Source of the DNA: Kiritimatiellia bacterium
GTDB taxonomy: Bacteria > Verrucomicrobiota > Kiritimatiellia > RFP12 > UBA1067
Assembly (NCBI GenBank): GCA_017454745.1
Contig: JAFTCL010000029.1
Span: forward strand, 23,968 to 87,967
Direction: 5' to 3'
Length of the DNA: 64,000 bases
Shown one piece after another: positions 22,976-38,084 of the stretch. The position numbers and the translations under genes were made by a program. Position 1 is the first letter of the stretch; each line of letters begins with the position of its first letter. The notes under the pieces were generated by a model. The model had not been told where the DNA came from. It did no database searches and saw only the letters and a list, made by a program, of their open reading frames with translations.

Positions 22976-25900
22976 TTAGTCGCGGCGCAAGCGGTAGAAT
23001 CCGCTTGGTGCCATGTGCGGGATGACTAGAGTTTGCAACCCGGCGGGGAATTTCCCGCTTTCCAGTTCCCGCCATTCCGCGTCCGGCGATTCTGCGCTCT
23101 CCAGATGATAGAGAACGCCCGGCTGCGCCTCAAAAATTAGGTAGCCGTTGTCGCCGTCCGACCGGAAGCCGAGGATGGCGAGCGAAACGCTGTCCTCCGT
23201 GTCGGCGCTGAAAAAGGTCCAGTCCAGCCGGAGGCAGGGTTTCCCCGGATCGTTGGTCATAAATTCCAGCGTGACCGTTTCTGCGGGGGCTGAAAGGTTC
23301 GCCGGGTAACCGGTGAAACCAAAGGTTTGCGTTTCTCCGGGATTCAACCCGATCCCGTTGCCGCCGGAGTCTTGCCGTACTAGGCCGTTGTCGGGCATGG
23401 GGGCAAGACGGACGTTGTCGATGTACCAGCCTTCCGGATCGGAGTTGTTGTCTCCGCCCATCACAAAACGGAACACCACGCTCTTGCCGGCGAAACCGTT
23501 TTCTTCCGGGTAAAGTTCGGACAAGTCAAACGTCGCGGTCCGCCAGCCTTCCGTGCCGTCGCCGGAGAAACACGGGGTGCCGTCCTCCCATGGCGACGCC
23601 ATGCGGGTGCCGGAATACCACCAGCCGTAAATGGTGTGGGTGTAAGGTCCGCGCAGCTGCTTAAATGTTTCTCCGCCGTCGAGCGAATATTCAACAATCC
23701 CGCCGTCAAAGGTTCGGCTTGGGTCTTCGCTGTCGGGTTCGCCTTGAATCCAGTAATCGAACGAAAGCACCGTTCCGGGTTCCAGTTTTTCCGCATGGTG
23801 GGTGATGGAACCGTGGACACCCGCGCCGTATAAGAAATAGCGCGCGCTGTTGAGCTGGCAGTGCAGCGCGTAGGGGGCCGAGACAAAACGGTTGGTGCTG
23901 ATTTGCCACGTTTGTTTGGGTTCGTAGGAGTTCCAATCCCATTCGGCGTGGCGATCGGCGGTGATGGGGTCGAACCGCACCAGAGCCACCGTGCCGGTCA
24001 ACGCGACGTTACCGTCATTGCTGATAACGCGCTGGAACGGGATTGGCAGAGTGTCGGCGGCGGACAGGGTGGCGCGGCAGCTGAATTCATCGGCGTTCAA
24101 CAGCGGATAAACCAACCGGGTTTCGTATTCGTCCGACACCGCGCACAGACCAGAGGGGTTTTGGGCGGTGATGTAGTAACGAAGTGTCGCGCCCGGACCG
24201 AAGCCTTCGCCGAAAACGGCGGTGAAGGTGCGGCGCAAGGCGGCACTGGCGGACATCGGGGTTTCGCGCCACTCGTCTTCGTCCTTGTTACGCCAGTGCA
24301 GGGTTGGCGATACTACCGCGTGGGGATCGGTGATAAGGGCGGTTAAGGTAAGCGGGGGCGGAACGCCGCACTCGGCATCGAGCGGGCTGACGGTTATCGT
24401 CGGCGGTCCGGGAATCGCGGCGGCATCGGTCGGGTCGCAGCGGAACCCGTACTCCGTTGCCAGCGAAAAACCGTCGCCGTCAAAATCGGCTTCGGGGTCA
24501 TTCCCGGTCGACCCCAAATACCGTAACTCGTACCAGTCGGGAATCCCGTTCCCGTCCGCGTCCAGTTCTTCCGGCATATATTCCGCCACCAGACAGTGAG
24601 GAGAGTCGGCCGGGAGCGGGCCGGGGGCGGGATTGCAACCGCCGGGAGCGGCGGGAAAACGCTGTCCGTCAAGCCGCCATTCGTAAAAGCGGTAACAAGC
24701 GGAGTTGGTGGCGACGGGGTCGGGAATCTCTTCCGGAGTAAAGAGTCCCCCCGCCTCGCTCCATTGGGTCCAATCATCGAACAACGCGTCGTGGGTGCTG
24801 ACCGTCAACCGGTATTCGGTGTCCGACTGCCATTGGACGGAGGAATGGGTATCGAGCCGGAAGGTGAATTCGGCTTCGCTGCCGGATGGGGCGGAACCGA
24901 TTCCGAAATGGTTGGTGTAGGTATGTCGGGTGTCGTCGGCGGTGTAAACCACACCCGCGCTGCGCACGGAGAACACGGTGCCGGACGGTGCTTCGTGGGA
25001 ACCGTAATCCGGCACCGGCGAGCCAAGTTCGTACGGCGATCCGGTGACCGTCAGCGTCATCCGTTCGCCCGACCAGAAAACGCATTCGCCTTCGGACGGG
25101 AATGCGGCGGCGAGTCCAGAGATGGTGGCGGCGGTGATGCGGTAGCGGATTTCGGTATGCGCGGGCTGGGCGGGGATGGCGGCTTCGAATAACGCGCTGC
25201 CGGGATGATTGGTCATGGCCAAACTATGCACGCCATCGCCTGCGTCCCACTCCAGCCGTACCGTGTCGGGAGCGTACAGTCCGCACGGGCCGAGGGTGCA
25301 AACCACAGGATATTCCGCCACATCGTCAAACTGGTTGGGTAGCGGGGTGTGGCTGATAACGGTCGGGGTGAGGTTGATCGCCGGGAAAAGCGGGGTGGCG
25401 GGGTCGCCGAACAGCGTGAGTTCGAGATACACCCACCGCCAGTAGTTGAAAACGTTGCAGTTGCCGAGGATTTTCCGGCGGGAACATTCGTTAGCCTCGC
25501 CGATGGTGGCGGCTTCGCCATCGAATATTTTTTCCCAGAACACGCGTTGTGTGTAGGGCGACGGTCCGCCGAGCGAGTTGCTGAAAAACCAGCCGTTGCG
25601 GGTATTCATCACGGCGGCAAAGGCGGCGTTGGTGGCGGACACCAGTTGTTCGGCGTAGCAATGCGGGTTGTCGAACGCGCCGGAATTGCAGGCGATGGAA
25701 TAGACCAAGAACGGCAGGGAGTTGGTCAGCGTTTGGAAGGGATTGTTTGCGCCGTTGCTTTGCACGGAGATTTTCATCGCGCTGTACAGCGAGCCGTGAC
25801 CGAAGTTGTTGACCGCCGCCGGGCTTTGGTTGAGCAAGTTTTGGGTATCCTCCGCCGTGAATAAACCGTTGGTGCCGTCGTACAGCGTGACCGTGTCGAA

Positions 25901-27142
25901 TATGTCGCGGTAGCGGCCGCCGATGAACCCGCTGGTAGTGTAGCTCTGTTCCGATCCGCCCAGCCGCAGCAATTCCATAAACCCGTCGGAATAGGTGAAG
26001 CTGCCGGCGTCGATCTTTTCTCCGATGAACGCCGCGCCACGTAGTGCCTCCGCGGCGGCGGACTCGTAGGCAAGCGTCTTGCGCACCATCAGCGCGAATC
26101 CGTCGGCATCCGCCACCGGGAACCGTCCTACGAACAATTCCGACAACAGGTCAATGTCGCCGCCGTCTGGGCCGTCGTTAAGTTCGCCGTACACGCCGTT
26201 GCCGTTACCGTCCATAGAGCCGTCGAGACATCCGTAGTAAATCTGGTCGGATGGGATCTGGGCGGAACTGGTGGTGGTCATGACGGTGAAAGACAAAGGG
26301 AATTTTGGCGTCGGAATCCAATCGTGGTTGCCGACCAGCAGCAGGTAACGCGGCTGCCAGTGGTCGCGGGCGTCTTTGAGGAAATTCCTGATTTTGGTCG
26401 GCTGACCGATGCCGTTATAGTTGCCGGAAATCCATTCGGTGGTGACGGTTTTGGCGCGGTGGCCTTGGCGTTCGCGGGCGGCGATTAAGGTTTGCAACGG
26501 TACGGCGGCGGATTCCGATTCCAAAATCGCGCTTGGCCCGATCAACAGATAGTCGAATGTGTCCGTCTCCAGCGGTGACGCGGCGGCATCCAGTTTAACC
26601 GCGTGGTGCGGGCGGCTTTGCAGGGTAAGGGTTACCTTCCACGTTTCCGATCCGGTTATGCAGCGTTGAAGCGGCAGGTAACGGACCGGGTGCAATCGCA
26701 CCGTGGCCAGATTGCGTTCGCCGTCGCGGTCGGTTCGGAATGTCGCAATTGGGGTAGGGGGCCATGGTCGGTCGGACGTTTCGATTTCCGGACGCATTTC
26801 GACGGCGGCCGGCGCGGAATCGCCGGGGCGCACTGCGGGTTGGCCGCAGACGGGCGGCGCGGACAACGCCGCCACGTATGGCGCAAGCGGTTCTGCCGTG
26901 GCGGCAACCGCCACCGTGCCGGAGGGGATTTCGATCTGCACGCTGGCGGCGGGAAGCAATGGTTCGCCGGGCGCGGCGTCATTTGGGCAACAGGGTAAAT
27001 CGATTGCCGTATTGCCGTTGGCGGTTACGGTTAAGCGCGGGCGCGGGAAAGATACGGTTTTACTGACGCAAAAAGTTGCCTCGGCGGCATTGAGTGTTAC
27101 CGCCGAGGTCAGTAAAAATATGCAAACGCGCCACGGCATCAC
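22976..27142 (-). CDS. Secreted peptidase C25 (gingipain-like, clan CD) family protein with a long C-terminal extension.
   Basis: Signal peptide MMPWRVCIFLLTSAVTLNA. His and Cys catalytic contexts NFGHGSLYS and YSIACNSGAF matching the C25 dyad environment. 1388 aa. Confidence 0.6.
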   Translation of the reverse strand: MMPWRVCIFLLTSAVTLNAAEATFCVSKTVSFPRPRLTVTANGNTAIDLPCCPNDAAPGEPLLPAASVQIEIPSGTVAVAATAEPLAPYVAALSAPPVCGQPAVRPGDSAPAAVEMRPEIETSDRPWPPTPIATFRTDRDGERNLATVRLHPVRYLPLQRCITGSETWKVTLTLQSRPHHAVKLDAAASPLETDTFDYLLIGPSAILESESAAVPLQTLIAARERQGHRAKTVTTEWISGNYNGIGQPTKIRNFLKDARDHWQPRYLLLVGNHDWIPTPKFPLSFTVMTTTSSAQIPSDQIYYGCLDGSMDGNGNGVYGELNDGPDGGDIDLLSELFVGRFPVADADGFALMVRKTLAYESAAAEALRGAAFIGEKIDAGSFTYSDGFMELLRLGGSEQSYTTSGFIGGRYRDIFDTVTLYDGTNGLFTAEDTQNLLNQSPAAVNNFGHGSLYSAMKISVQSNGANNPFQTLTNSLPFLVYSIACNSGAFDNPHCYAEQLVSATNAAFAAVMNTRNGWFFSNSLGGPSPYTQRVFWEKIFDGEAATIGEANECSRRKILGNCNVFNYWRWVYLELTLFGDPATPLFPAINLTPTVISHTPLPNQFDDVAEYPVVCTLGPCGLYAPDTVRLEWDAGDGVHSLAMTNHPGSALFEAAIPAQPAHTEIRYRITAATISGLAAAFPSEGECVFWSGERMTLTVTGSPYELGSPVPDYGSHEAPSGTVFSVRSAGVVYTADDTRHTYTNHFGIGSAPSGSEAEFTFRLDTHSSVQWQSDTEYRLTVSTHDALFDDWTQWSEAGGLFTPEEIPDPVATNSACYRFYEWRLDGQRFPAAPGGCNPAPGPLPADSPHCLVAEYMPEELDADGNGIPDWYELRYLGSTGNDPEADFDGDGFSLATEYGFRCDPTDAAAIPGPPTITVSPLDAECGVPPPLTLTALITDPHAVVSPTLHWRNKDEDEWRETPMSASAALRRTFTAVFGEGFGPGATLRYYITAQNPSGLCAVSDEYETRLVYPLLNADEFSCRATLSAADTLPIPFQRVISNDGNVALTGTVALVRFDPITADRHAEWDWNSYEPKQTWQISTNRFVSAPYALHCQLNSARYFLYGAGVHGSITHHAEKLEPGTVLSFDYWIQGEPDSEDPSRTFDGGIVEYSLDGGETFKQLRGPYTHTIYGWWYSGTRMASPWEDGTPCFSGDGTEGWRTATFDLSELYPEENGFAGKSVVFRFVMGGDNNSDPEGWYIDNVRLAPMPDNGLVRQDSGGNGIGLNPGETQTFGFTGYPANLSAPAETVTLEFMTNDPGKPCLRLDWTFFSADTEDSVSLAILGFRSDGDNGYLIFEAQPGVLYHLESAESPDAEWRELESGKFPAGLQTLVIPHMAPSGFYRLRRD

Positions 27143-27144
27143 CG

Positions 27145-30100
27145 TTACCTGATGAGGAACTTCGTCCCGGAGTCAAAGTAGATGCCGTCGTCACGCACCA
27201 TTAGGAAGTATCCGCGGCGGCGCATGGCGGCCGAATTTACGAAATTGACCCCCTCCGGTTTTTCCGCCCACTTGTAAAGGCAGGAAGTGGTAAATTCGGT
27301 ACGGTCACCAATATCCACCGTCACGGTAGCGCCTTCGAAGAAGGTGATCGTTTGGCCTTCACTTTCATCGAAGGTTTCGGTGAATTGCGACAGATCCAAC
27401 ATCGGTTCGAGGTGGTTCTCGTCGCCCAGTTGCACCAAAGGACGCAGGTTGAATCCATCTTCGCTTTCGGATTCCAACGGCGGGGTATAGCTGTCGAACA
27501 CCACAATCGGCGAGGGCGATGCGTTAAGTTCACGGAACTTTGATCCGGGGTGGAATGTCAGCGATTTGACCGGCGACAGGATTCCGGTGTTTTGCCAGTA
27601 ACGACCGTAAACCTCCACAACGCAATTGCTCGCCGACGGTTTGGAGATGTGGGTCTGGAACCAGCCGTTCGTAGCAATGACGATTTTCCCTTCGCCGTAG
27701 TAAGACATGTTGCCGGCGAAGATGCGGGCATCGCCATTGCCATCGTATGTAACAGTGTTTCCGCCCATCGTCATGGTGTTTGCGCTGTAGTTGTAGAAAA
27801 ACATACCCATGTTGCCGCCGGCATACACCGTGGCATTCGTGGCGAGTGTCACGTTGCGCAGGAACGACGTACCGGTGTTTTGCGCATACGCCGTGGCCAC
27901 GTTGATTTCCGCGGTACTGATAAGTGCGCCCGTATCGTCCGGACCCGTGCCCGAAATGGTGTAGTCGTAGTCGTGGTACGTGCGTCCGTTGAGGTCGAAC
28001 TGCGCACCTTCCTCCACCACGATGCGCGAATACGCCTCACCGCATGTCGCGCCGGACGCTTTCTTAACCAAGCCGTCCTCCACCACCATTGAGGTGATGC
28101 CGTTTCCGCCAAAAGTGTTCACCTTCGACATCGTAAGCACGCCCTTGCCTGTTTTGTGTATCCGGAGACCCATGCCGTCAAAGAAATAGTTTTGGGTGCT
28201 ACCTAGTACAATGTTGGAAATGTCGCAATCTTCACCTTCGGGAACGTCAATCGTCAAATGGCTTTCCGGGCTGACTGTAGCTTCGTCAACCAAAATCCAG
28301 GCATAGTATCGGCCAAAAATGAAAGAGTGGGTTCCGGCATTTAGTGTTTTTTGGTAGATCGGCGACGAATTACCCTGTGGGTAAGGTTTTACATCAAGAT
28401 GTTTTACAACGCTATTGGCTGAGTCGATTCCACAATCCACCCCATATTCCGCATAATTGGAATCGTACTTCGCATACCTGAATCTGATGTAGCAGACACC
28501 AGTGCGTGCGACCGTGAACAGGGTGGTTGCGCCGGCGGTGTCATTCGGAGATCCGATTACGCACCAGTGGTTCCCGGCAAATGGCTTGTCCTTGCATGTG
28601 TTTGCCGTCACGCCATTTCCGTTGGCCGTGACCGTCTCGTTGCCGGAACCGAATGCCCATCCTGTACTGCCATTCTCAAAACCGCCGTTTGCAATGAGAT
28701 TACCTGCGGTGATGCGTCCGGTTCCCTGCGGTTTGTGGATCTTGAGGTTCCAACCCATAAGGTATATTGTTTTGCCGTTCATGTCGAAGTCGATTGCTCG
28801 CCAGTCCGCGTCGCCAGAAAGCGTTATGTCGTTTTGCAGCAAGACAATCGCATTGGCGGCGGCGATTTCATCGGTGTGTTGTGCGAGAGCCTGAAACTCG
28901 GCGTTATCCGCGAAGAGCACCTTCATGTAGTCCATTCCAAGTGTCCACTCGCCTACGTATGGGTTCAATTCTTCGTCGTAGAACTTCCATCCGTCGCTTG
29001 CGATGTCATATTTGACGAACGAAGGCACCTTGCCGGGAAGCACGTAAAGGCCTTCGGGTTTTGCCCACAGACCAAGCCGATCCTTGTTGGCACCGTCAAT
29101 GACAAACGTTGCAGTGGACATTTCCGGCCAAGCCACCAACAGGGTACTGCCCGCAAATTCGCGTGTTCCAAGATTGACCGTAATGGTGGATCCGGCATAA
29201 AACGTCGTATTCGAACCGTCGAAGACATCGCTTAATTGCGAGAGGTCGAACTCCGCCTCAAGGTGAGTGGCATCGCAGAGCTGGACCGGTTGGGTGGTCA
29301 GGGTGCAGGTGCCGTTAGCCTCGCATAGGACAGCGGGTTTATATTTTCCGGTAATAACCGTCGTGGGTATGCTGCCGGAACCGGCGGTGTCGGACAAAAC
29401 GAGTTGCGCCCCCTCCTCGAACATCAGCGACTTAATGGTGGAAAAGCCGCCATTGTCCATGGTAAGACGTCCAAAAATCGTCACATCGCTGTCGGGGGCG
29501 GACGAATTGTGGCCGTAGAACGAAAAGTCCGTGCCTTTGGGTATTACGACGTTGCCTGCGCCACTGTAGGTGACGTTGCCGGCATAAACCGTCGGGGCGG
29601 AGTATGTCAACGTATGGCTGTTCAACGTCGTCGTGGTTGCGGCCCAGTTTCCGTTCTTTAGGTTGAGCGGTTGGGAACCTCCGATTACGGCGTTCGTGGC
29701 AAACGTGATGTTCCGCACGGCGAACGCCGCATTAGCCACATCAGGCACTTCCGTGTTGTTCACGATCGCGCCGAGTCCGTCTGGACCCGAACCGGCGATG
29801 TTGAAATCGTAGCTCGCGCTGCTGTCCGTCCCGCCGACATCGAACTGCGCGCCATCATTCACGACAATGCGCGAATTCTGTCCGCCGGCAGTCATGCCGG
29901 GGGCTTTCATTACAAGACCCTCTTCAACCACAAGGGATATCGCGCCGTCCGCCTGGGTAGCCATCGTCCACGCCTTGTTCAGGAGAAGCGTACCTTTGCC
30001 AGTCTTGTGGATTTCCAAGCCAAGACCGTAGTCGCCTTCGTAAGTCGATGTGGACGCACCGCCGAAACTCAAACTTGAAGTATCGACCTCCTCGCCCTCT

Positions 30101-30885
30101 GGAACGTCGAACGTCAAATGGCTCTCGGGGCTAATCGTCACAAAGCCGATCATCGAATAGCCGTTGTTGCGCCTGACCATGGCCTGAATTTGCGTCCCCC
30201 CCGTTACGGCTTTTGTCCACGGCCCCCGCCATACTTCACTCGCGTACGGCCCGGTATATGTGTAGTTCATGTAAACCGTCCCGCCGACAGAAAAGTAAAT
30301 GTACTGTTCATAGGTACTGCTGCCGTACTTCTTCGTCTTGCAGGCGATGTAGATATTGCGCGACTTTGGCGGCGTGAAGTCCCACCAGAGAGCGTTACTT
30401 TTGCTCGAGGTTCCAACATTCCACCAGCCGCCTCCCGCGCTCCATGTCGCGCTGCCGTTGCCGGATGGGGTAAGCGGATTGATCAGGTTGCCCGCCGAGA
30501 AACGTCCGTTCACCGGCTTGTGGACTTTCAGGTCGTAACCCTGTAACGTGACCGCCTTGCCGTTCATATTAAAGTCAATTGCGCTCCAGTCGGTATCTGC
30601 CGTGAGCGTGATGTCGTTCTGCAACGCAACCGTTACGTCGTCGAAAGCGCCCGGATTATCCTCGGCGTATTGGACAAGCGACTGAAATTCTAAATCGCTC
30701 GCGAAAAGCACCGTACAGCCCCCAAGCCCGGTTTCCGGGGCTTCGACGGCGTTTTCGCATGAAATGTCATCGTAGTAAACGAAGTTTTGCCCGACCAATT
30801 TCGCGAAAAACGTGTCGGCCGCCGCATTAAACGAAACTATAGCCGCTGCCGTTGCGGCGGTAAATAATCCTGCTGTTCTGCGCAT
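27145..30885 (-). CDS. Large secreted beta-helix surface protein with autotransporter-associated (PATR-like) repeats. It is internally duplicated.
   Basis: 1246 aa with a signal peptide. Two homologous halves (FQSLVQYAEDNPGAFDDVTVALQNDITLTADTDWSAIDFNMNGKAVTL versus FQALAQHTDEIAAANAIVLLQNDITLSGDADWRAIDFDMNGKTIYL). KTGKGTLLL-type repeats. Ends 2 nt upstream of the C25 gene. Confidence 0.65.
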   Translation of the reverse strand: MRRTAGLFTAATAAAIVSFNAAADTFFAKLVGQNFVYYDDISCENAVEAPETGLGGCTVLFASDLEFQSLVQYAEDNPGAFDDVTVALQNDITLTADTDWSAIDFNMNGKAVTLQGYDLKVHKPVNGRFSAGNLINPLTPSGNGSATWSAGGGWWNVGTSSKSNALWWDFTPPKSRNIYIACKTKKYGSSTYEQYIYFSVGGTVYMNYTYTGPYASEVWRGPWTKAVTGGTQIQAMVRRNNGYSMIGFVTISPESHLTFDVPEGEEVDTSSLSFGGASTSTYEGDYGLGLEIHKTGKGTLLLNKAWTMATQADGAISLVVEEGLVMKAPGMTAGGQNSRIVVNDGAQFDVGGTDSSASYDFNIAGSGPDGLGAIVNNTEVPDVANAAFAVRNITFATNAVIGGSQPLNLKNGNWAATTTTLNSHTLTYSAPTVYAGNVTYSGAGNVVIPKGTDFSFYGHNSSAPDSDVTIFGRLTMDNGGFSTIKSLMFEEGAQLVLSDTAGSGSIPTTVITGKYKPAVLCEANGTCTLTTQPVQLCDATHLEAEFDLSQLSDVFDGSNTTFYAGSTITVNLGTREFAGSTLLVAWPEMSTATFVIDGANKDRLGLWAKPEGLYVLPGKVPSFVKYDIASDGWKFYDEELNPYVGEWTLGMDYMKVLFADNAEFQALAQHTDEIAAANAIVLLQNDITLSGDADWRAIDFDMNGKTIYLMGWNLKIHKPQGTGRITAGNLIANGGFENGSTGWAFGSGNETVTANGNGVTANTCKDKPFAGNHWCVIGSPNDTAGATTLFTVARTGVCYIRFRYAKYDSNYAEYGVDCGIDSANSVVKHLDVKPYPQGNSSPIYQKTLNAGTHSFIFGRYYAWILVDEATVSPESHLTIDVPEGEDCDISNIVLGSTQNYFFDGMGLRIHKTGKGVLTMSKVNTFGGNGITSMVVEDGLVKKASGATCGEAYSRIVVEEGAQFDLNGRTYHDYDYTISGTGPDDTGALISTAEINVATAYAQNTGTSFLRNVTLATNATVYAGGNMGMFFYNYSANTMTMGGNTVTYDGNGDARIFAGNMSYYGEGKIVIATNGWFQTHISKPSASNCVVEVYGRYWQNTGILSPVKSLTFHPGSKFRELNASPSPIVVFDSYTPPLESESEDGFNLRPLVQLGDENHLEPMLDLSQFTETFDESEGQTITFFEGATVTVDIGDRTEFTTSCLYKWAEKPEGVNFVNSAAMRRRGYFLMVRDDGIYFDSGTKFLIR

Positions 30886-31302
30886 TAGTTACTCCTTTCA
30901 TTTGACCAAAAGTATAATATAAATGCATAACACCGTCAATAACGATTATTATATGTTTTGTTTTTCTACGGGACACCAGCCTGCCTATAAGCAGATTTTT
31001 CCGTTCTCTGCCGGGATGCATTGTTCAATATATGGAAGTAAGGAGGCCTGCGTCAAGCATATATAACTTGAAACCGTTGTTTGTGTATGATCCAAGCGGA
31101 TCACGGGGTACTGCCACCCGTCGGTTCAAGCCGATCGGCCCGGCATCTTCAAGCCAGGCGGTAGGAGTCGTAAGTCGCTTGGGTCTGGATGTCTTATGTC
31201 CTAGGTCTGAAGTCCTATGACTAGATTAACTAGACCAACAAGATCGACTAGCGACTAAATAAACCGTCAAATCCCCAAAACAAATTTTTCTGTTTTTGCC
31301 GG

Positions 31303-31344
31303 TTGACATTTGGTGGGCGGTGTGATAAAATTAGACTTGTCTAA
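31303..31344 (+). promoter_or_regulatory. Near-consensus sigma70 promoter with an overlapping palindromic operator upstream of the OMP-feo locus.
   Basis: TTGACA (31303-31308), 17 nt, TAAAAT (31326-31331), immediately followed by the perfect palindrome TTAGAC-TT-GTCTAA (31331-31344). Confidence 0.5.
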
Positions 31345-31386
31345 TTTCAAAAGACGTGGAAGGTTCTTAAGAAAGGTTCAAATGGC

Positions 31387-32283
31387 ATGAATGCAAAGCT
31401 TATGATGGCGTTGGTCGCCAGTGCGATGGCTTTTGGCGCGTTCGCGCAGGAAGCCAAGGCTCCGCAGGGAGTCAAAGAGAAAGAGGATGATTCTTTCATC
31501 TCGACTGAATTCGGTTTGGGTTTCGATTCCAAATTCATGAGTTACGGTCTCGTTGACAACAACGACCCGATCGTCACTCCGTCTGCATCGATGACGCTCT
31601 GGGAGCATTTCACGTTCAGCGTTGAGGCGTTGTTCGACACGACCAAATACGGCCGTGAGCGTCGCGGCGGTTACGGTAACCGCGCCGGTAAGTATTTTGA
31701 GCTGGATCCGGGTGCTTCAATCGACTGGTCTTTCTCGAAAGACGATTACGACTGGCTGCCCACTAAGTTCGACGTTTCGCTCGGATACGGTTACGAGTAC
31801 CATCCGCGCTCCATGGGCGGCGGAACCGGCGAACCCGGCGATGACACCCAGTTCATCACGCTCGACATCGAGTGCCCGGACCTTTGGCTGGAGCCGACGC
31901 TGAGTTTCGAGCGCGACATTGATCGTGACAACGGCACCTACGTCAATTTGGAGATCGGCCACACCATCGGTTTGGTCGGCGATGACGACGACCCCACGTT
32001 GGCGCTCAAGCCCTCGATCGCGCAGGGCATCGGCAACACGCAGCGTACCCGCGGTTACGGCATCGCGGAAGATCACGGCGGATTTATGGACACCACGCTC
32101 AAAGTCGAGCTGACTTGGAAGATCAAGGAATTTCTTGAACTTTCCGGTTATGTGGCCTACTACGACTACATCTTCGACTCCACCCTACGCGAAGGCGCCC
32201 GGGAATACACCGGCAAGTCCAAGCGCGGCAGCGATGAGAGTTACCACTTTGTTGGTGGCGTGGCGTTGAAGGCGAGCTTCTAA
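31387..32283 (+). CDS. Putative outer-membrane beta-barrel (porin-like) protein.
   Basis: Signal peptide MNAKLMMALVASAMAFGAFAQEA. Alternating amphipathic beta-strand patterns, Gly/Asp-rich loops, C-terminal aromatic residue (…VALKASF). Confidence 0.45.
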   Translation: MNAKLMMALVASAMAFGAFAQEAKAPQGVKEKEDDSFISTEFGLGFDSKFMSYGLVDNNDPIVTPSASMTLWEHFTFSVEALFDTTKYGRERRGGYGNRAGKYFELDPGASIDWSFSKDDYDWLPTKFDVSLGYGYEYHPRSMGGGTGEPGDDTQFITLDIECPDLWLEPTLSFERDIDRDNGTYVNLEIGHTIGLVGDDDDPTLALKPSIAQGIGNTQRTRGYGIAEDHGGFMDTTLKVELTWKIKEFLELSGYVAYYDYIFDSTLREGAREYTGKSKRGSDESYHFVGGVALKASF

Positions 32284-32299
32284 CCTTTCTGTTCTGATA

Positions 32300-32334
32300 G
32301 CGGGCGGAGGGCCTTTGGGTGCCCTCCTGCCCGC
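32300..32334 (+). terminator. GC-rich hairpin downstream of the OMP gene (terminator or attenuator).
   Basis: GCGGGCGGAGGGC, 9-nt loop, CCCTCCTGCCCGC. No immediate T-run, although a T9 tract lies about 55 nt downstream. Confidence 0.35.
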
Positions 32335-32442
32335 ACTATGGAAGAATTCGCGGTCTCAGGAGTGAGCCGCGGTGAGTAGGGGAAAGAAGCGATTTTTTTT
32401 TGCACTCATTGTTAGTTTGGGCTAACTTTTGTCTGGCCGCCG

Positions 32443-32685
32443 ATGGCGGAAGGAGTGATGAAGATGCCTCTGGCATTAATTAGGGAAGGCGATCGGGCTA
32501 GGGTAAAAGCCATCACCGGTTCGGATGCGGTGAGGAAGCACCTCGGCTCGCTGGGGTTTGTGTCTGGCGCGTTGATTACGGTGATCCAGATTTCGGCAGG
32601 AAACATGATACTCGGCATTCACGACAGCCGCGTCGCGCTCAACCGCGACACTGCGGCCCGGGTGATGGTGGATCCGGTGGTTTGA
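32443..32685 (+). CDS. feoA: Ferrous iron transport protein A (FeoA domain).
   Basis: 80-aa SH3-like FeoA sequence (ARVKAITGSDAVRKHLGSLGFVSGALITV). The start may be MKMP at 32461. Confidence 0.75.
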   Translation: MAEGVMKMPLALIREGDRARVKAITGSDAVRKHLGSLGFVSGALITVIQISAGNMILGIHDSRVALNRDTAARVMVDPVV

Positions 32686-32701
32686 TCGAATTGGAAAGGA
32701 A

Positions 32702-32932
32702 TTGATCGTTATGAAAACGTTGAATGAGGTTGAGGTCGGTAAATCCGTCAAGGTGGTGCGGCTTACCGGCGAGGGCGCGGTCAAACGCAGGATTATGGAT
32801 ATGGGACTGACCCGCGGAACCGAGGTGACGGTCCGGAAGGTTGCCCCGCTCGGCGACCCGATTGAGCTTACGGTGCGCGGCTACGAGCTGTCGATCCGCA
32901 AGGACGAGGCCGCCAAGATAGAGGTCGAATAA
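32702..32932 (+). CDS. feoA: Second FeoA-domain protein.
   Basis: 76 aa: VKVVRLTGEGAVKRRIMDMGLTRGTEVTVRKVAPLGDPIEL. Confidence 0.75.
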   Translation: MIVMKTLNEVEVGKSVKVVRLTGEGAVKRRIMDMGLTRGTEVTVRKVAPLGDPIELTVRGYELSIRKDEAAKIEVE

Positions 32933-32961
32933 CCAGAGTAGTTTACGGAGAAGAAACAGCC

Positions 32962-35598
32962 ATGACTATCAAAATTGCCCTTGCGGGCAACCCAAATTCC
33001 GGGAAAACCACATTGTTCAATGCGTTGACCGGATCCAACCAGTATGTCGGCAACTGGCCCGGTGTGACCGTAGAGAAGAAAGACGGCCGTCTGAAAGACC
33101 GGAAAGACGTGATAATTCAGGACCTTCCCGGCATTTATTCGCTATCTCCATATTCGCTTGAAGAGGTGGTGGCGCGTACCTATCTAGTTGACGAGAAGCC
33201 GAACGCGATTTTGAACATTGTCGATGGCACGAACATCGAGCGCAATCTTTACCTGTCCACCCAGCTGTCCGAGTTGGGCATCCCGATGGTGATGGCCGTA
33301 AACATGATGGATGTCGTGGATAAGCGCGGGGACAAAATAGATTTCGCCAGGATCGGGAAATCGCTCGGTTGCCAGGTCATCGGCATCAGCGCCGCCATGG
33401 GGAAGGGGTGCGACGAAGTGGCGGCTGCCGCCATCGCCGCCGCCGACAAGAAGACCGGCGAGGCCCCGCACGTGTTTACCGGATCGGTTGAACACGCCAT
33501 CGCCCACATCGAAGAATCGCTGCAGGGCAAGGTGTTCGACTCCGCGATCCGCTATTTCGCAATCAAGGTGTTTGAGCGCGACCAGAAAATTATCGATTCG
33601 ATTGGCCTTGATGCCGACACGCTTGAACACATCGAGGAGCACATTAAGGACTGCGAGAAAGAGTTGGACGATGACTCGGAATCGATCATCACCAACCAGC
33701 GTTACGAGTTCATCAAGAACTTGATGGACAAGTCGCTTACCAAGAGCGAAAAACGCCGGGGCCGTGTCACTCTGTCGGACAAGATCGACCGCATTGTCAC
33801 GAACCGTATTTTGGCGCTCCCGATTTTTATCCTTTCGCTCTGTATCATGTGGTGGCTTGCGGTCGCGGAGAATGGCCCGGGCACGATTCTAACCGATTGG
33901 GCCAATGACGGCTTCCTTGGCGACGGTTGGCACCTGCCGTTCACTACCCACGAATGTAAAGCGGACGGCAAGTACAAGGGCATGGAGTTTGAAGAAGCGC
34001 AGGGCGAGTTCGCCAAGCAGGAAGCCTCGGTGTCCGCTTGGCAGGATGCCTACAAAGAGGCGTATAACGCCAAAAACGGAGAGGATTCTTACGACAAGGC
34101 GCTCGAAGCGTTCAACGAGAAGGCGAAGGCTGACTTCAAGCCGGAAAACAATGATGACGGGTTTGAAGCGTCCGAGTTCGAAGTGCTTGACGAGTCAATC
34201 GCCGCATCGGTGGTAGCGAAGGGTGTTTTCGTCGAAGACGAAGAAACCGGAGAACCGGTGGCGAAAGAGTGCGATTGCGAGAAATGCGCCAAGGGCGGCG
34301 AGGAATGTGATGGTTGCGGCTGCGGTTGCGGCGAGCCAGACCTTTGGGATGTCGATTACGCGGCATATAAGGCGGCAAGCGAGTGGGAGGAGCCGGATCC
34401 GTCTAAATTCGGCGTGTGGGTGCCGGGAATCGGCGCTTTAATCGGCGAAGCCCTTGAAAAGGCCGGCGTTAGTGATACGGTGGCGAGTTTGGTCAACGAT
34501 GGCGCCTGGGGTGGCGTTGCAACGGTGCTTGGCTTCGTTCCGGTCATTTTTATCGTGTTCTTGTTCCTCGCCTTTCTTGAGGATTGCGGATACATGGCGC
34601 GCGTTGCGTTTATCATGGACCGCCTATTCCGGAAATTCGGTCTGTCCGGAAAGTCTTTCATCCCGATGATCGTCGGCAAGGGTTGCGGGGTCCCGGCGGT
34701 GATGGCCGCCCGTACCATTGAGAACGAACGCGACCGGCGCATGACGATCATTCTCGCCACGTTCATACCGTGCGGCGCGAAGACGGTGATTATCGCCATG
34801 TTCTCCGCGCTGTTCTTCCGCGAGCAGTGGTACATCGCCGCGCTCATGGATGTAGTCGGTATCGCAATCATCGTCCTTGGCGGTATCGCGCTCAAGAAAA
34901 CGCGCGCTTTCGCCGGAGAGGCGGCTCCGTTTGTAATGGAGCTTCCCGCGTACCACATGCCGACAGTCGGCGGCATCTGGCACCACACATGGAACCGCCT
35001 GAAGGCCTATATGCTAAAGGCCGGCCTCATCATCTTCCCGGCGTGCGTGTTTCTGTGGTTTATCATGCACTTCGACTGGTCGTTCACGCTCCTGACGGAT
35101 GAAGAAATCGAGCGGTCGATCCTGCACGACATGGGCAGCTGGATCGCGTGGATCTTCGCTCCGCTCGGCTTTGGCACCTGGCAGGGTGCTGCGGCGTCCG
35201 TCTCGGCGGAAATCGCAAAAGAGCAGGCGACTGCAACCTTGGGGCTGGTTGCGGCAAACATGGAAGGTGTCTCCACGGCGGCGCGGATCCAGAACCTGTT
35301 CGCGTCGATGAGCAGCTTCCCGAAACTTGCGGCGCTTTCGTTCATGCTCTTCAACCTCTTCGTTCCGCCGTGCATGGTCGCGATCGCGGTCACTTTCCGC
35401 GAGATGGGGTCGAAGGCGTGGGGCTGGTTCGCGGTCGGTTTCCAGCTGTTTGTCGGCTACGCGCTCGCCTTGAGCGTCTATCAGATCGGCATGCTTTCCG
35501 CCGCCGGCGGATTCGGCTTCTGGACCGTAGTCGCCATTCTCGTCGATCTGTTCTGCCTGTGGGCGATTTTCCGTCCGGCGTCGAAAGGAGCGGAATAG
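32962..35598 (+). CDS. feoB: Ferrous iron transporter FeoB with an unusual acidic, Cys-rich insertion between transmembrane helices.
   Basis: G-domain IALAGNPNSGKTTLFNALTG and DLPGIYSL. FeoB membrane core including gate motifs. 878 aa against a typical 700-780 aa. About 200-aa Asp/Glu-rich loop containing CDCEKCAKGGEECDGCGCGCGE. Confidence 0.9.
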   Translation: MTIKIALAGNPNSGKTTLFNALTGSNQYVGNWPGVTVEKKDGRLKDRKDVIIQDLPGIYSLSPYSLEEVVARTYLVDEKPNAILNIVDGTNIERNLYLSTQLSELGIPMVMAVNMMDVVDKRGDKIDFARIGKSLGCQVIGISAAMGKGCDEVAAAAIAAADKKTGEAPHVFTGSVEHAIAHIEESLQGKVFDSAIRYFAIKVFERDQKIIDSIGLDADTLEHIEEHIKDCEKELDDDSESIITNQRYEFIKNLMDKSLTKSEKRRGRVTLSDKIDRIVTNRILALPIFILSLCIMWWLAVAENGPGTILTDWANDGFLGDGWHLPFTTHECKADGKYKGMEFEEAQGEFAKQEASVSAWQDAYKEAYNAKNGEDSYDKALEAFNEKAKADFKPENNDDGFEASEFEVLDESIAASVVAKGVFVEDEETGEPVAKECDCEKCAKGGEECDGCGCGCGEPDLWDVDYAAYKAASEWEEPDPSKFGVWVPGIGALIGEALEKAGVSDTVASLVNDGAWGGVATVLGFVPVIFIVFLFLAFLEDCGYMARVAFIMDRLFRKFGLSGKSFIPMIVGKGCGVPAVMAARTIENERDRRMTIILATFIPCGAKTVIIAMFSALFFREQWYIAALMDVVGIAIIVLGGIALKKTRAFAGEAAPFVMELPAYHMPTVGGIWHHTWNRLKAYMLKAGLIIFPACVFLWFIMHFDWSFTLLTDEEIERSILHDMGSWIAWIFAPLGFGTWQGAAASVSAEIAKEQATATLGLVAANMEGVSTAARIQNLFASMSSFPKLAALSFMLFNLFVPPCMVAIAVTFREMGSKAWGWFAVGFQLFVGYALALSVYQIGMLSAAGGFGFWTVVAILVDLFCLWAIFRPASKGAE

Positions 35599-35599
35599 C

Positions 35600-35767
35600 A
35601 TGAATCTGGCATCCGTTCTGGTTATCGCGTTGATTGTCGCGTTTGCCGCGCTGTCGGTGTGGCGCTGTCTTAAAAAAGGCGCGCCCTGTTCCTGCGGATG
35701 CGACGGGGAAGAGTGCGCCTGCTGCCACGGCGGTAAAGGATGTTCCTGCCACGGCGATGATAAATAG
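35600..35767 (+). CDS. FeoB-associated Cys-rich small membrane protein (55 aa). It is not in the supplied ORF track.
   Basis: ATG 2 nt after the feoB stop. Translation MNLASVLVIALIVAFAALSVWRCLKKGAPCSCGCDGEECACCHGGKGCSCHGDDK: one TM helix followed by a Cys/His-rich tail. Confidence 0.65.
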   Translation: MNLASVLVIALIVAFAALSVWRCLKKGAPCSCGCDGEECACCHGGKGCSCHGDDK

Positions 35768-35789
35768 TTGGACTATGAGATAGACCGTG

Positions 35790-35925
35790 TGGAATGTTGC
35801 CAGTGTTACCAGTGTTGCCAGTTGCCAACGCCAATGTTGCCAATTTTGGGATTGGTAATTGGTACTGGCAACATTTTCACATTGGCAATATTTTCACATT
35901 GGCAACATTTCCGCACCGCCGCAGT
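35790..35925. repeat. Dyad array of TTGCCA/TGGCAA heptamer-like half-sites.
   Basis: Left half carries about four GTTGCCA(G/A) units; right half carries the reverse complement TGGCAAC three times, including a tandem 17-bp repeat (C/T)ATTTTCACATTGGCAA twice. Confidence 0.6.
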
Positions 35926-36105
35926 TATTTTAAAATCTGTTTGCCTTTTTGCCGGATAAATGCTAAATTAATTTTGTCAGCCTAAAGGCGTGGTGTGTTT
36001 TTTGCTTGTCTGGCGTATGTGCCGGACGCGGCGGGCGTTTCATTCCGTCGTGATAATGAAGACGGGATTTTGGCGGCGGTTTCGCGATAAAAGAAAGGAA
36101 AAAGT

Positions 36106-36924
36106 ATGGATAGGAGAAGTTTTTTGGGTGAATTTTTAGGAACGTTTATTTTGACGCTTTTTGGCTGTTCCTCTGTGGCTTGCGCCGTGCTTTTCGGCGA
36201 GTACGGCAGTATCTTCCAGATCGGTTTGGTGTGGGGATTAGGCGTGTCGCTGGCGGTTTACATGACGCGTTACCTTTCCTGCGCGCATCTCAATCCGGCG
36301 GTTTCGGTGGCGATGGTGCTGGCGGGCCGGATGAAGGCGAAAAAGCTTCCGTGTTATTTGGTGGCGCAGCTCTTGGGCGCGTTGGTGGCGGGACTCGCGC
36401 TTTACGGGCTTTTCTCGGCTTCGATCGCGCATTACGAGCAGATTCACAATATAGTGCGCGGGACGGCGGCCAGCGTGGATACGGCGCGAATGTTCGGCGA
36501 GTTCTATCCCAATCCCGGCGATTCGGCGGCGGTTGTATCGATGCCGCTGGCCATCGCTGCCGAGGCGTTCGGAACTTTCCTGCTGGTGCTGATCATCTTC
36601 TTCCTGACGGAAGGTTGCAACGTGGGCCGGCCGAGCGAGCCGTTGCAGCCGCTATTCGTCGGGTTGACGGTCGCCTCGATTATCTTCTTCATCGCGCCGT
36701 TGACGCAGGCCGGCCTCAATCCCGCCCGCGACTTCGGACCGCGCGCGGTGGCGTATTTTTGCGGCTGGGGCAAAGCGGCTTTACCGGATACCGTCGGCGG
36801 CTGGTTCTGGGTTTATGTGCTGGGACCGATCGGCGGCGGTGTGGTGGCTGCCGGAGTCTTCCGGTTTATTGTCGAGCCGGTGTTGGTCGCGAAGAACAAA
36901 GCGGACGGATGCTGCTGCAAATAG
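36106..36924 (+). CDS. MIP-family aquaporin / glycerol-uptake-facilitator-like channel.
   Basis: Two NPA motifs (HLNPAVS and LNPARDFGPR). Six hydrophobic helices. C-terminal Cys-rich tail KADGCCCK. Confidence 0.85.
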   Translation: MDRRSFLGEFLGTFILTLFGCSSVACAVLFGEYGSIFQIGLVWGLGVSLAVYMTRYLSCAHLNPAVSVAMVLAGRMKAKKLPCYLVAQLLGALVAGLALYGLFSASIAHYEQIHNIVRGTAASVDTARMFGEFYPNPGDSAAVVSMPLAIAAEAFGTFLLVLIIFFLTEGCNVGRPSEPLQPLFVGLTVASIIFFIAPLTQAGLNPARDFGPRAVAYFCGWGKAALPDTVGGWFWVYVLGPIGGGVVAAGVFRFIVEPVLVAKNKADGCCCK

Positions 36925-36989
36925 CGGCCGTTTACCGTCGGGTTTTTCAGTAAGGTTTCGGGGGGTGGAAATAAAGAAAGGACAAACGG

Positions 36990-38084
36990 ATGAATCAAAC
37001 GCAGCTTATTTTAGTCGGCGGATTTCTTGGCGCGGGTAAGACCACGCTGATCGAGCGCGTGGCGCGGCGGTTGGCGGAACAGGGAAAGCGCATCGGGTTG
37101 ATCACCAATGACCAGGCGACCGGACTTGTCGACAGCCAGTTGCTCCGGCAGGGGGCTTGGACGGTGGCCGAGGTCGCCGGAAGTTGTTTCTGCTGTAATT
37201 TCAACGGTTTCATCGACGCGGTAAAGAAAGTGGGGGGTGAGAATCGGGCGGATGTCATCTTGGCGGAACCGGTGGGCAGCTGCGCCGATCTTTCGGCGAC
37301 GATTCTCCAGCCGCTGAAACAGTATTGGAAGAGTGAGGTGCGGGTGTCACCTTTTACGGTGTTGGCCGATCCCGCGCGGCTTGCGGCGATCCTGAAGGGT
37401 GAAAACGGCGGACTGCACGAGGACGCGGCATATATTTATCGTAAACAGCTGGAGGAGAGCGACCTTATTCTCATCACGAAAATCGACACCCTTACGCCCG
37501 AGGCATTGGAAAACCTGAAGGCGGTGACCGTTGCGGCCTTTCCGGCGAGCCGGGTAATGGCCGTCAGCGCGCTTCAGAATGTGGGGATTGACGCTTGGTT
37601 GGACGATCTCGCGGAACATACCGATGCGGGAACGCGGCTACTGATGATTGATTACGACCGTTACGCGCACGGCGAGGCGGTCCTGGGATGGTTGAACGGC
37701 GCCATCCGTCTGCAGGGCGCGGAATGCGATGGAAACGCGTTGCTGGCCGAGCTGATGAACGCGCTTCAGGACCGCATTGCGGCGGGGAATTTCCGTGTCG
37801 GCCATGTGAAGGCGATTGTCGAAAACGGCGTTCAGTATGCAGTCGGGAATATCACGGGAACCATCGGGGCGCTCACCTTCCGCGGGGATGCAGGGACGGG
37901 TGACGACCTGCGCTTGACGATCAACGCCCGGGTAGAGTGTTCGCCCGAACGGCTCGACGAGTTGGTTCGCAGTGCGCTGGACGCGGCCATCGCCGACAAG
38001 CACGCTTTCGATATCCTCGAATGGCGTTATCTGCAACCCGGACGCCCCAATCCCACTTACCGTTTCGATCAGGTCGTGGGTTGA
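36990..38084 (+). CDS. COG0523 (CobW/ZigA/YeiR-like) G3E-family P-loop GTPase, a putative metallochaperone.
   Basis: Walker A LVGGFLGAGKTTL. Metal-binding GSCFCC (GCxCC) motif. LITKID G4-like motif. Confidence 0.8.
   Translation: MNQTQLILVGGFLGAGKTTLIERVARRLAEQGKRIGLITNDQATGLVDSQLLRQGAWTVAEVAGSCFCCNFNGFIDAVKKVGGENRADVILAEPVGSCADLSATILQPLKQYWKSEVRVSPFTVLADPARLAAILKGENGGLHEDAAYIYRKQLEESDLILITKIDTLTPEALENLKAVTVAAFPASRVMAVSALQNVGIDAWLDDLAEHTDAGTRLLMIDYDRYAHGEAVLGWLNGAIRLQGAECDGNALLAELMNALQDRIAAGNFRVGHVKAIVENGVQYAVGNITGTIGALTFRGDAGTGDDLRLTINARVECSPERLDELVRSALDAAIADKHAFDILEWRYLQPGRPNPTYRFDQVVG

Follow-up and report, generated by a model that had tools for sequence, protein, structure and literature searches.

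The feo operon and its FeoB

The DNA analysed here (‘the window’, a 64,000-nucleotide stretch of contig JAFTCL010000029.1) comes from a gut/rumen Kiritimatiellia bacterium and contains a feo operon of otherwise ordinary make-up, in which the ferrous iron transporter FeoB carries a long acidic insertion, bearing a compact cluster of cysteines, between its first two transmembrane (TM) helices. Four genes (feoA, feoA, feoB and a 55-residue open reading frame, or ORF) lie on the same strand, abutting or nearly so:

32443–32685, + strand: feoA copy 1, 80 aa (PF04023 FeoA, 4.7e-16)
32702–32932, + strand: feoA copy 2, 76 aa (PF04023 FeoA, 5.7e-24)
32962–35598, + strand: feoB, 878 aa, with a G domain, helical domain and 8-TM permease (GenBank MBQ9431043.1, ‘ferrous iron transporter B’)
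35600–35767, + strand: FeoB-associated Cys-rich membrane peptide, 55 aa (GenBank MBQ9431044.1, annotated as that class)

We tentatively assign to this ferrous-iron uptake operon, in order, a putative outer-membrane protein, the two FeoA proteins, FeoB and a peptide of the PF12669 class. NCBIfam as well as Pfam recognises both FeoA proteins. The first feoA copy is kept upstream of feoB in nearly all related loci, and the second is found at 56–98% identity in most of them; compared with a canonical feo operon, this one has two feoA genes and no feoC. FeoB, FeoA and the PF12669 peptide are known types that are annotated correctly, and the exact FeoB and 55-residue proteins are present in GenBank. 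A GTDB scan gave ‘Verrucomicrobia bacterium UBA1200’ as the closest genome (95% identity), the remaining near relatives being Kiritimatiellae and Lentisphaerae metagenome-assembled genomes (MAGs) from rumen and gut.

The 878-residue protein is identified as FeoB by its score against TIGR00437 (483.6 bits, cut-off 315.65), by its combination of a GTPase fold with a polytopic permease, and by its place in an operon with feoA. Its Pfam matches to FeoB_N (213.5 bits, 1.4e-63), Gate (95.3 bits), FeoB_Cyto (73 bits) and FeoB_C (64.3 bits) all exceed the gathering thresholds; it carries two Gate stretches, and its hydropathy profile shows eight hydrophobic spans. The TIGR00437 match is split in two, with the second part aligning residues 499–814 to profile positions 291–594. 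An AlphaFold2 (AF2) model of the whole protein was mediocre (predicted local distance difference test score, or pLDDT, 68.6), and a Foldseek search with it returned only NFeoB/GTPase matches; the NFeoB part of the AF2 model resembles crystal structures of Streptococcus thermophilus NFeoB (E 1e-19, target-normalised TM-score 0.9). The protein thus shares with canonical FeoB (Escherichia coli, S. thermophilus and Vibrio cholerae; TIGR00437 or PF02421 + PF17910 + PF07670 + PF07664) the G domain, helical domain, two Gates and FeoB_C region, the feoA-feoB operon logic, and an NFeoB model that superposes on the solved structures. It differs in the TM1–TM2 loop, which is approximately 44 residues long in canonical FeoB and 212 residues long here, with a predicted folded acidic domain and a seven-cysteine cassette.

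An acidic domain inserted between TM1 and TM2

Hydropathy analysis placed TM1 at residues ∼283–303 and the next TM helix at ∼516–540. The intervening loop was delimited by hydropathy and a tally of its charges, and the insertion within it by comparison with two short-loop FeoB proteins from Lachnospiraceae (L074 and L076, of 703 and 718 aa):

33871–34506, + strand: TM1–TM2 loop, the predicted first extracytoplasmic loop of FeoB, aa 304–515
33928–34413, + strand: acidic insert domain, aa ∼323–484 (∼162 aa)

The 212-residue loop contains 49 aspartate and glutamate residues against 17 lysines and arginines, giving a net charge of about −32, and eight cysteines (positions 332, 437, 439, 442, 449, 452, 454 and 456).

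We extracted FeoB from 79 related loci and aligned the proteins for a comparison of loop length. The loop is 44 residues long in L074 and L076, so that the net insertion relative to those two is ∼162–169 residues. It spans 126–318 residues in the Kiritimatiellia and Lentisphaeria relatives, and ∼136–196 residues in FeoB proteins of Clostridia, Fusobacterium and many Atopobiaceae/Coriobacteriia; the longest, of 367 residues with 17 cysteines, belongs to a metagenome relative. The additional sequence enters at one identical point, between TDW(A/T)ND.LFG(D/E) and (W/I)VPG. Every long loop is strongly acidic; the number of cysteines is mostly 0–2, and the Atopobiaceae loops have none.

A profile–profile comparison of the Kiritimatiellia insert with the insert from Gram-positive bacteria and Fusobacterium (hhalign) gave a match with 97.2% probability and an E-value of 3.5e-11. 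The match covers the C-terminal half of the insert and comprises a strand, an acidic turn (EDEETGE versus DEDGN), a helix and the sequence EEPDPSxFGVWVPG. Across 85 sequences, four residues of the turn never vary (D426, E427, T429 and G430), and conservation at the other three (E425, E428 and E431) is 90% or higher. Judged from these alignments, the insert is a homologous trait of a long-loop FeoB subfamily that crosses phyla (being found also in Lentisphaeria, Clostridia, Fusobacterium and Atopobiaceae) and is not particular to this gene.

When the loop was modelled by itself with AF2, using 20 relatives in the alignment, its core was assigned pLDDT values of 85–97. The model comprises a long helical hairpin (residues 343–372 and 376–391), a short helix and a small beta-sheet. 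The insert is therefore predicted to be a folded domain rather than a linker, a judgement based on the core pLDDT together with the insertion point and C-terminal half that are common across phyla. Foldseek with the insert-only model returned nothing from the PDB at E≤10, and a Pfam search with a 216-residue loop query returned no family at E≤10, the bacterial metallothionein family PF02069 included. A phmmer search of the insert core (residues 323–485) against 1.84 billion representative sequences gave only four matches, and single-sequence searching is therefore unable to trace the insert; a word-indexed search with the loop gave seven matches, all fragmentary.

In a few relatives the acidic insert is tandemly duplicated. 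These are P0114 (1037 aa) and the FeoB proteins of loci L064 and L068 (∼980 aa), which have loops of 316–367 residues with 10–17 cysteines and include linkers of the form CEH..C..CDDC..CEDC.

A cysteine cassette at the tip of the insert

Seven of the eight loop cysteines are gathered in the 20 residues CDCEKCAKGGEECDGCGCGC (aa 437–456):

34270–34329, + strand: Cys cassette, aa 437–456, C-D-C-E-K-C-AKGGEE-C-D-G-C-G-C-G-C, read from the sequence

Not one of 5000 shuffles of the FeoB protein placed seven cysteines within 20 residues. The cassette directly follows the acidic turn EDEETGE, at the hypervariable tip of a hairpin, and its position is that at which the Gram-positive inserts have their own variable excursion in the hhalign alignment. 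Across relatives the motif can be written C-x-C-x2-C-x6-9-C-x2-C-x-C-x-C and occupies 20–25 residues.

We surveyed the cassette in 121 near relatives (70–80% identity). All seven cysteines are present in 79 of these sequence clusters, and about 36 others have no cassette, with a clean replacement reading ...ETGEPVAKE-DNED-EPDLWDVDY.... The glycine and cysteine codons of the cassette vary synonymously among relatives, from which it follows that the peptide sequence is what is conserved; this pattern argues that the cysteines, when present, are under constraint. Sister clades have other cysteine clusters elsewhere in the loop: in one type (type B) six cysteines directly follow TTHE, in another (type C) a tandemly duplicated insert has CEH..C..CDDC..CEDC plus CGC-C, and P0045 combines type B with the cassette described here (type A) for a total of 14 cysteines. 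The recurrence of such clusters at other positions in the loop points to selection for loop thiols as such. The eighth loop cysteine, Cys332, is kept in 118 of the 121 sequences, 30 of which have no other cysteine in the loop; the lack of a partner in cassette-less loops argues against a purely disulfide-structural role for it. The hosts of these FeoB proteins are strict anaerobes of gut and rumen, and the distribution of Cys332 suggests that such organisms tolerate free thiols in the periplasm, where the loop is predicted to lie.

Bacterial metallothioneins (SmtA/BmtA, PF02069) have the same C-x-C and C-x-x-C spacings as the cassette and a similar cysteine content of approximately 35%. They are, however, soluble cytoplasmic proteins, whereas the cassette is embedded in the loop of a membrane transporter and has no PF02069 match. 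A second point of comparison is HypB, since C449-D-G-C452-G-C454 is a C-x-x-C-G-C motif of the HypB type: the end of the cassette, C-(D/E)-G-C-G-C-G-C-G-E, resembles HypB MCTTCGCGEG in having C-x-x-C-G-C followed by G...E, and both are disordered without metal. The CxxCGC sequence at the HypB N-terminus binds Ni(II) with picomolar affinity and Zn(II) as well, with the terminal amine as a ligand (PMC12284835). The two proteins are not homologous, and the HypB site stands at the extreme N-terminus of a GTPase, whereas the cassette motif is internal to a predicted extracytoplasmic FeoB loop and is accompanied by four additional cysteines.

A sequence-only reading of this region had described FeoB as carrying a long, acidic, cysteine-containing insertion after TM1, and the 212-residue loop with its 49 acidic residues and eight cysteines bears this out. 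The cysteine string that it quoted, CDCEKCAKGGEECDGCGCGCGE, is located at residues 437–458 (nucleotides 34270–34335). Its estimate that FeoB exceeds canonical length by 100–150 residues is about right (878 versus 703 and 718 residues in the short-loop proteins), and the alignment with canonical FeoB that it proposed, made here with the short-loop proteins, delimited the insertion to residues ∼323–484; its figure of ∼200 residues for the insertion proved too high when measured against the 44-residue loop of L074 and L076 (net ∼162–169 residues). It had also allowed, as an outcome that would count against its reading, that the extra length might be a common lineage-wide linker without conserved cysteines, and half of that description holds: the acidic loop is widespread and has mostly 0–2 cysteines, while the 20–25-residue cassette is specific to one Kiritimatiellia clade and patchy even there, with all seven cysteines in 79 of 121 relatives.

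Some short metagenome contigs contain parts of the insert in unusual contexts. P0003 joins a PF12669-like TM helix and KKKGCGCGCG to the C-terminal part of the insert, and P0151 joins a zinc-ribbon-like N-terminus to the cassette. We considered these two as evidence for domain shuffling or a split FeoB and rejected them, chimeric joins at a GGC-TGC repeat being the simplest explanation. The contig that encodes P0003 (L080) is 787 nucleotides long, with the 3′ end of a methyltransferase gene upstream and a frameshifted end; in P0002, part of the insert is fused to a stretch that by eye resembles the elongation factor LepA. The contigs of P0003, P0002 and P0151 are probably assembly chimeras at or near the GGC-TGC repeat, and such short contigs call for caution when cassettes of this kind are mined from metagenomes.

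The small Cys-rich peptide encoded after feoB

The feoB stop codon (TAG, 35596–35598) is followed after 2 nt by the ATG of the peptide gene at 35600, with a ribosome-binding-like sequence located inside the 3′ end of feoB:

35585–35590, + strand: Shine-Dalgarno-like AAGGAG, 9 nt before the peptide ATG, read from the sequence

The peptide consists of a hydrophobic helix (residues 6–21), a basic flank (RCLKKG) and a 29-residue tail with eight cysteines, and has nine cysteines in total. Against PF12669 it scores 14.3 bits (E 0.052), below the gathering threshold of 27 bits, and it has no NCBIfam match at E≤0.01. Its positional orthologs, which share 22–55% identity with it, match PF12669 at E≤1 in 28 of 34 cases (best 2.1e-13) and thereby form a homology chain to members of that family. 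With its position as a same-strand small ORF directly after feoB, and a single N-terminal TM helix preceding a Cys-rich motif, the peptide belongs to this class.

Wherever sequence beyond feoB was available in a Kiritimatiellia-type locus (34 of 34), a peptide gene follows it, regardless of loop type, with a start codon that lies −7 to +173 nt relative to the feoB stop. It is also present in some Clostridia, in one Fusobacterium locus and in one Atopobium locus; most Atopobiaceae and two more distantly related Lentisphaeria MAGs (L025 and L026) lack it. The orthologs share the consensus MNxxSxxVLxVVxxLAALAxWRxxKKGAPCECGG, followed by a variable Cys-rich tail, and the gene differs from that of L019, a 95%-identical genome, by six synonymous codons and one nonsynonymous codon. 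This 6:1 ratio, the Shine-Dalgarno-like sequence and the overlapping or abutting stop and start codons are indirect support for a translated peptide. The PF12669 class has been discussed in PMC8749426, where its translation is stated to be unproven and where it is described as prevalent in Firmicutes and Bacteroidetes. The window peptide is like that class in being a short ORF right after feoB with a TM helix, basic flank and Cys-rich tail; the Kiritimatiellia copies differ in being near-universal in feo loci and in having their own consensus, KKGAPCECGG. Essentially every Kiritimatiellia feo locus is thus added to the known range of the family.

The Cys-rich tail of the peptide is more likely to lie in the cytoplasm, on the side opposite the FeoB loop, because R22, K25 and K26 follow the helix and the five N-terminal residues are uncharged (the positive-inside rule); residues rich in arginine and lysine follow the helix throughout the orthologs. 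The suggestion in the sequence-only reading that this tail captures periplasmic metal is therefore unlikely. Its description of a 55-residue ORF beginning 2 nt past the feoB stop and encoding one TM helix plus cysteines agrees with what we found, as does its count of two upstream feoA genes (both PF04023); the peptide gene is not unannotated, as it had supposed, since GenBank MBQ9431044.1 already names the class. It had further proposed a search for co-occurrence of the cysteine cluster in the insert with the small peptide, and no specific one emerged: the peptide is found in 34 of 34 loci with or without loop cysteines. It accompanies cassette-bearing, cassette-less and short-loop FeoB (L076) alike, and a specific association between cassette and peptide is ruled out.

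Membrane sidedness of the loop

We infer that the insert and its cassette almost certainly lie in the periplasm, because the loop follows a single hydrophobic span (residues 283–303) that comes after the cytoplasmic G and helical domains, and because it has a net charge of about −32 (17 lysines and arginines versus 49 acidic residues). TM1 has a Kyte-Doolittle mean of 2.5 over a 19-residue window (threshold 1.5) and aligns with TM1 of all FeoB proteins; TM2 ends in the basic stretch FLEDCGYMARVAFIMDRLFRKFGLSGK, and the charges of the other loops alternate as they should if the protein has eight TM helices and an inward-facing C-terminus. For Pseudomonas aeruginosa FeoB, published predictions have the G domains in the cytoplasm and give the permease 8–10 TM helices, four or five of its loops being periplasmic (PMC10925246).

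A possible periplasmic capture domain, and alternatives

How FeoB acquires Fe2+ in the periplasm and passes it through the membrane is a standing question. Our best reading of the insert, which we put forward tentatively, is that it captures cations in the periplasm and has, in the cassette, an accessory metal site made of thiolates. The acidic domain on the periplasmic face of the permease would form a cation-collecting vestibule or cap, raising the local concentration of Fe2+ above the pore. In an anoxic, reducing periplasm the thiolate cassette could provide a soft site of higher affinity for Fe2+ or for a thiophilic metal that competes with it, from which Fe2+ would pass to conserved residues in the permease Gate motifs. 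The 55-residue peptide would be a translationally coupled, single-pass subunit with an N-out/C-in orientation, placing its Cys tail at the cytoplasmic exit, where it might accept Fe2+ or sense redox or iron status, as has been proposed for the E. coli FeoB C-terminal tail or FeoC.

Two sets of known proteins offer partial parallels. In E. coli FeoB the C-terminal tail is cytoplasmic and rich in cysteine (CCAASTTGDCH); its behaviour as a ligand has been investigated with Fe(II), Mn(II) and Zn(II), and the TM helices are proposed to deliver Fe(II) to it (PMC10647171). This tail (and FeoC), as a short poly-Cys segment on the permease, is a likely functional analogue of the peptide tail; it is part of FeoB itself, whereas the tail in the window is on a separate single-pass subunit and the loop cassette is on the opposite, presumptively periplasmic side. 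Periplasmic ExxE motifs of PmrB, BqsS and VgrS bind iron (PMC5231390), and the EDEETGE turn likewise holds two overlapping ExxE motifs; those proteins are sensor kinases.

Several observations weigh against the capture reading. The cassette is dispensable, being absent in about a third of close relatives, and a neighbour-joining tree of the non-loop core scatters the cassette-less forms among the cassette-bearing ones; the tree is crude and the patchiness is clear. In the AF2 model of the loop the cassette is a low-confidence excursion between two strands (pLDDT 55–68). The insert core diverges quickly, which fits weak constraint on most of it, and ExxE motifs are not enriched in the loop beyond its composition (6 observed versus 3.8 ± 1.7 expected). 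The PDB copy that we searched contains no full-length FeoB structure against which the placement of the loop over the pore could be checked. For the peptide, the positive-inside rule is the single basis of the suggested topology, and PF12669 is reported to be fused to the FeoB C-terminus in some species (PMC8749426), an arrangement that, if that terminus is cytoplasmic, would put the tail outside.

Much of this evidence would also suit a cassette that is near-neutral or structural and takes no part in iron capture or transport, either a low-complexity expansion of the (GGC-TGC)n type or a small zinc or disulfide knuckle, on an insert that serves as a spacer or stabilising cap. The patchy presence of the cassette among FeoB proteins of 70–80% identity and its clean excision to AKE-DNED-EPD are what such an embellishment would produce; unrelated variable excursions occur at the same tip in Gram-positive relatives, the cassette pLDDT is low, the insert core evolves rapidly, and GCGCGCG-coding repeats are prone to slippage and seed chimeric metagenome contigs. 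Against it, the seven cysteines and their spacing are the same in all 79 clusters that have them, although the residues and codons around them differ, independent cysteine clusters in sister clades are hard to explain without selection for thiols, and Cys332 stands alone, with no disulfide partner, in cassette-less forms. We regard this explanation as unlikely, though it is the one to be taken most seriously among the rivals; if the cysteines are inert, the locus is simply a feo operon of ordinary type whose annotation is correct and whose loop is decorated.

The periplasmic cysteines might instead constitute a regulatory sensor, in which oxidation on exposure to O2, sulfide, or the binding of a toxic thiophilic metal such as Zn, Cd or Cu shifts the acidic cap and gates the pore, so that uptake proceeds only under anoxic, Fe2+-rich conditions. 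Such a device would be well placed where the cassette lies, beside the invariant acidic turn and at the tip of a domain predicted to be folded and extracytoplasmic; the host bacteria are strictly anaerobic inhabitants of gut and rumen, and FeoC, PF12669 and C-terminal tails have all been proposed as metal-binding or redox-sensing devices (PMC8749426). The cassette is, however, missing from many close relatives in the same habitats, and seven cysteines exceed the needs of a redox switch; we consider a sensor improbable.

It is more doubtful still that the cassette alters or widens specificity, making this a FeoB for another metal or for several, through capture of Ni2+, Co2+ or Zn2+. The C-x-x-C-G-C-G-(C-G)-E pattern is that of the high-affinity HypB nickel site, a CobW/HypB/UreG-family GTPase is encoded two genes downstream (36990–38084), and activity on Mn(II) has been reported for some Feo systems (PMC8749426). 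The HypB site, however, uses the free amine of the N-terminus, a ligand that an internal cassette does not have; among the other loci, only the near-identical L019 retains the CobW-like neighbour, and the Gate and FeoB_C regions are those of an ordinary FeoB. Finally, a cytoplasmic loop, with TM1 not a true span and the cassette an intracellular metal site like the FeoB C-tail, is very improbable: Cys-rich motifs are more usual in the cytoplasm, but the hydropathy of TM1 (2.5) and its alignment with TM1 of all FeoB proteins, the net charge of about −32 together with a charge pattern in the other loops that fits loop 1 outside, and the alternation of periplasmic and cytoplasmic loops in published P. 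aeruginosa FeoB predictions (PMC10925246) all argue otherwise.

Returning to the capture reading, its components could be linked into a trans-envelope thiolate relay, in which the outer-membrane protein encoded upstream (298 residues; see below) admits Fe2+, the acidic domain collects it, the cassette binds it as a station of soft ligands above the pore and the PF12669 tail receives it inside; in a variant, the cassette might extract iron from FeS species in sulfidic gut or rumen fluid. Such a relay is a speculative extension that we think improbable. If true, a module for periplasmic substrate capture would be defined here for the first time in any FeoB.

Searches of the open-access literature, in which absence is not proof, turned up neither a FeoB whose periplasmic loop is described as long and acidic or as containing cysteines nor a Feo precedent for a periplasmic Cys cassette. 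A FeoB subfamily with a predicted folded, acidic, extracytoplasmic TM1–TM2 domain and recurrent, clade-specific Cys cassettes thus appears not to have been described before. A separately folding domain of ∼160 residues, with natural variants that have or lack the seven-cysteine cassette, would provide a tractable handle on the question of periplasmic Fe2+ acquisition, and the patchy distribution of the cassette offers ready-made, isogenic-like comparisons.

The upstream secreted protein and neighbouring sequences

Two further features precede the first feoA gene on the same strand:

31303–31347, + strand: promoter-like site (TTGACA-17-TAAAAT, TG upstream; 11/12 in a consensus scan) and, directly after it, the perfect palindrome ATTAGAC-TT-GTCTAAT
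31387–32283, + strand: 298-aa secreted protein, putative outer-membrane protein (GenBank MBQ9431040.1, ‘hypothetical protein’)

The 298-residue protein has a signal-peptide-like N-terminus and ends in ...ALKASF, with a terminal phenylalanine; it has no Pfam, NCBIfam or PDB relative. Its homologs adjoin feoA/feoB on the same strand in ∼26 related loci, either upstream of the feo genes or immediately after the small peptide, and are found in most of the Kiritimatiellia relatives; loci with a homolog include L002, L004-L006, L008-L015, L018, L019, L027, L029, L033, L062, L064, L065, L068, L070, L073 and L075. The family has 545 database matches, none with a Pfam domain on record, and all of the named ones are called ‘hypothetical protein’. 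The protein is a plausible outer-membrane partner or channel candidate of this Feo system, and its association with feo brings to light an unclassified, feo-linked family of putative outer-membrane proteins.

The site at 31303–31347, which lies ahead of the gene for this protein and is near-consensus and sigma-70-like, is a candidate promoter/operator of the feo operon. A classical Fur box was not found anywhere in the window at ≤3 mismatches, and an Rfam scan (E≤0.1) of positions 30500–37200 gave no match.

The intergenic region after the peptide gene (35787–35916) contains six copies of AATGTTGCCA, three in forward and then three in reverse orientation, and includes three 17-nt tandem units, TGGCAACATTTTCACAT. 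At ≤1 mismatch AATGTTGCCA has 11 matches in the window versus 3.8 expected. Four copies are found at the same place in L019, and the other loci have none, except for one copy elsewhere in L018. The repeats might form a large hairpin, act as a terminator or serve as an array of operators.

Beyond it lie genes for a channel of the MIP/aquaporin family (36106–36924), with a Cys-rich C-terminus (...KADGCCCK), and then for the CobW/HypB/UreG-family GTPase (36990–38084), two genes downstream of the feo genes, whose best NCBIfam match is a ‘CobW-related selenoprotein’ model, below its cut-off. A functional tie of these two genes to feo was considered and rejected, since the pair is feo-adjacent only here and in the 95%-identical L019. 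On the other side, oriented divergently from the feo operon, are a 1246-residue ORF (27145–30885, − strand) with no Pfam match at E≤1e-5 and, adjoining it, the gene for a 1388-residue Peptidase_C25 (gingipain-family) protein (22976–27142, − strand).

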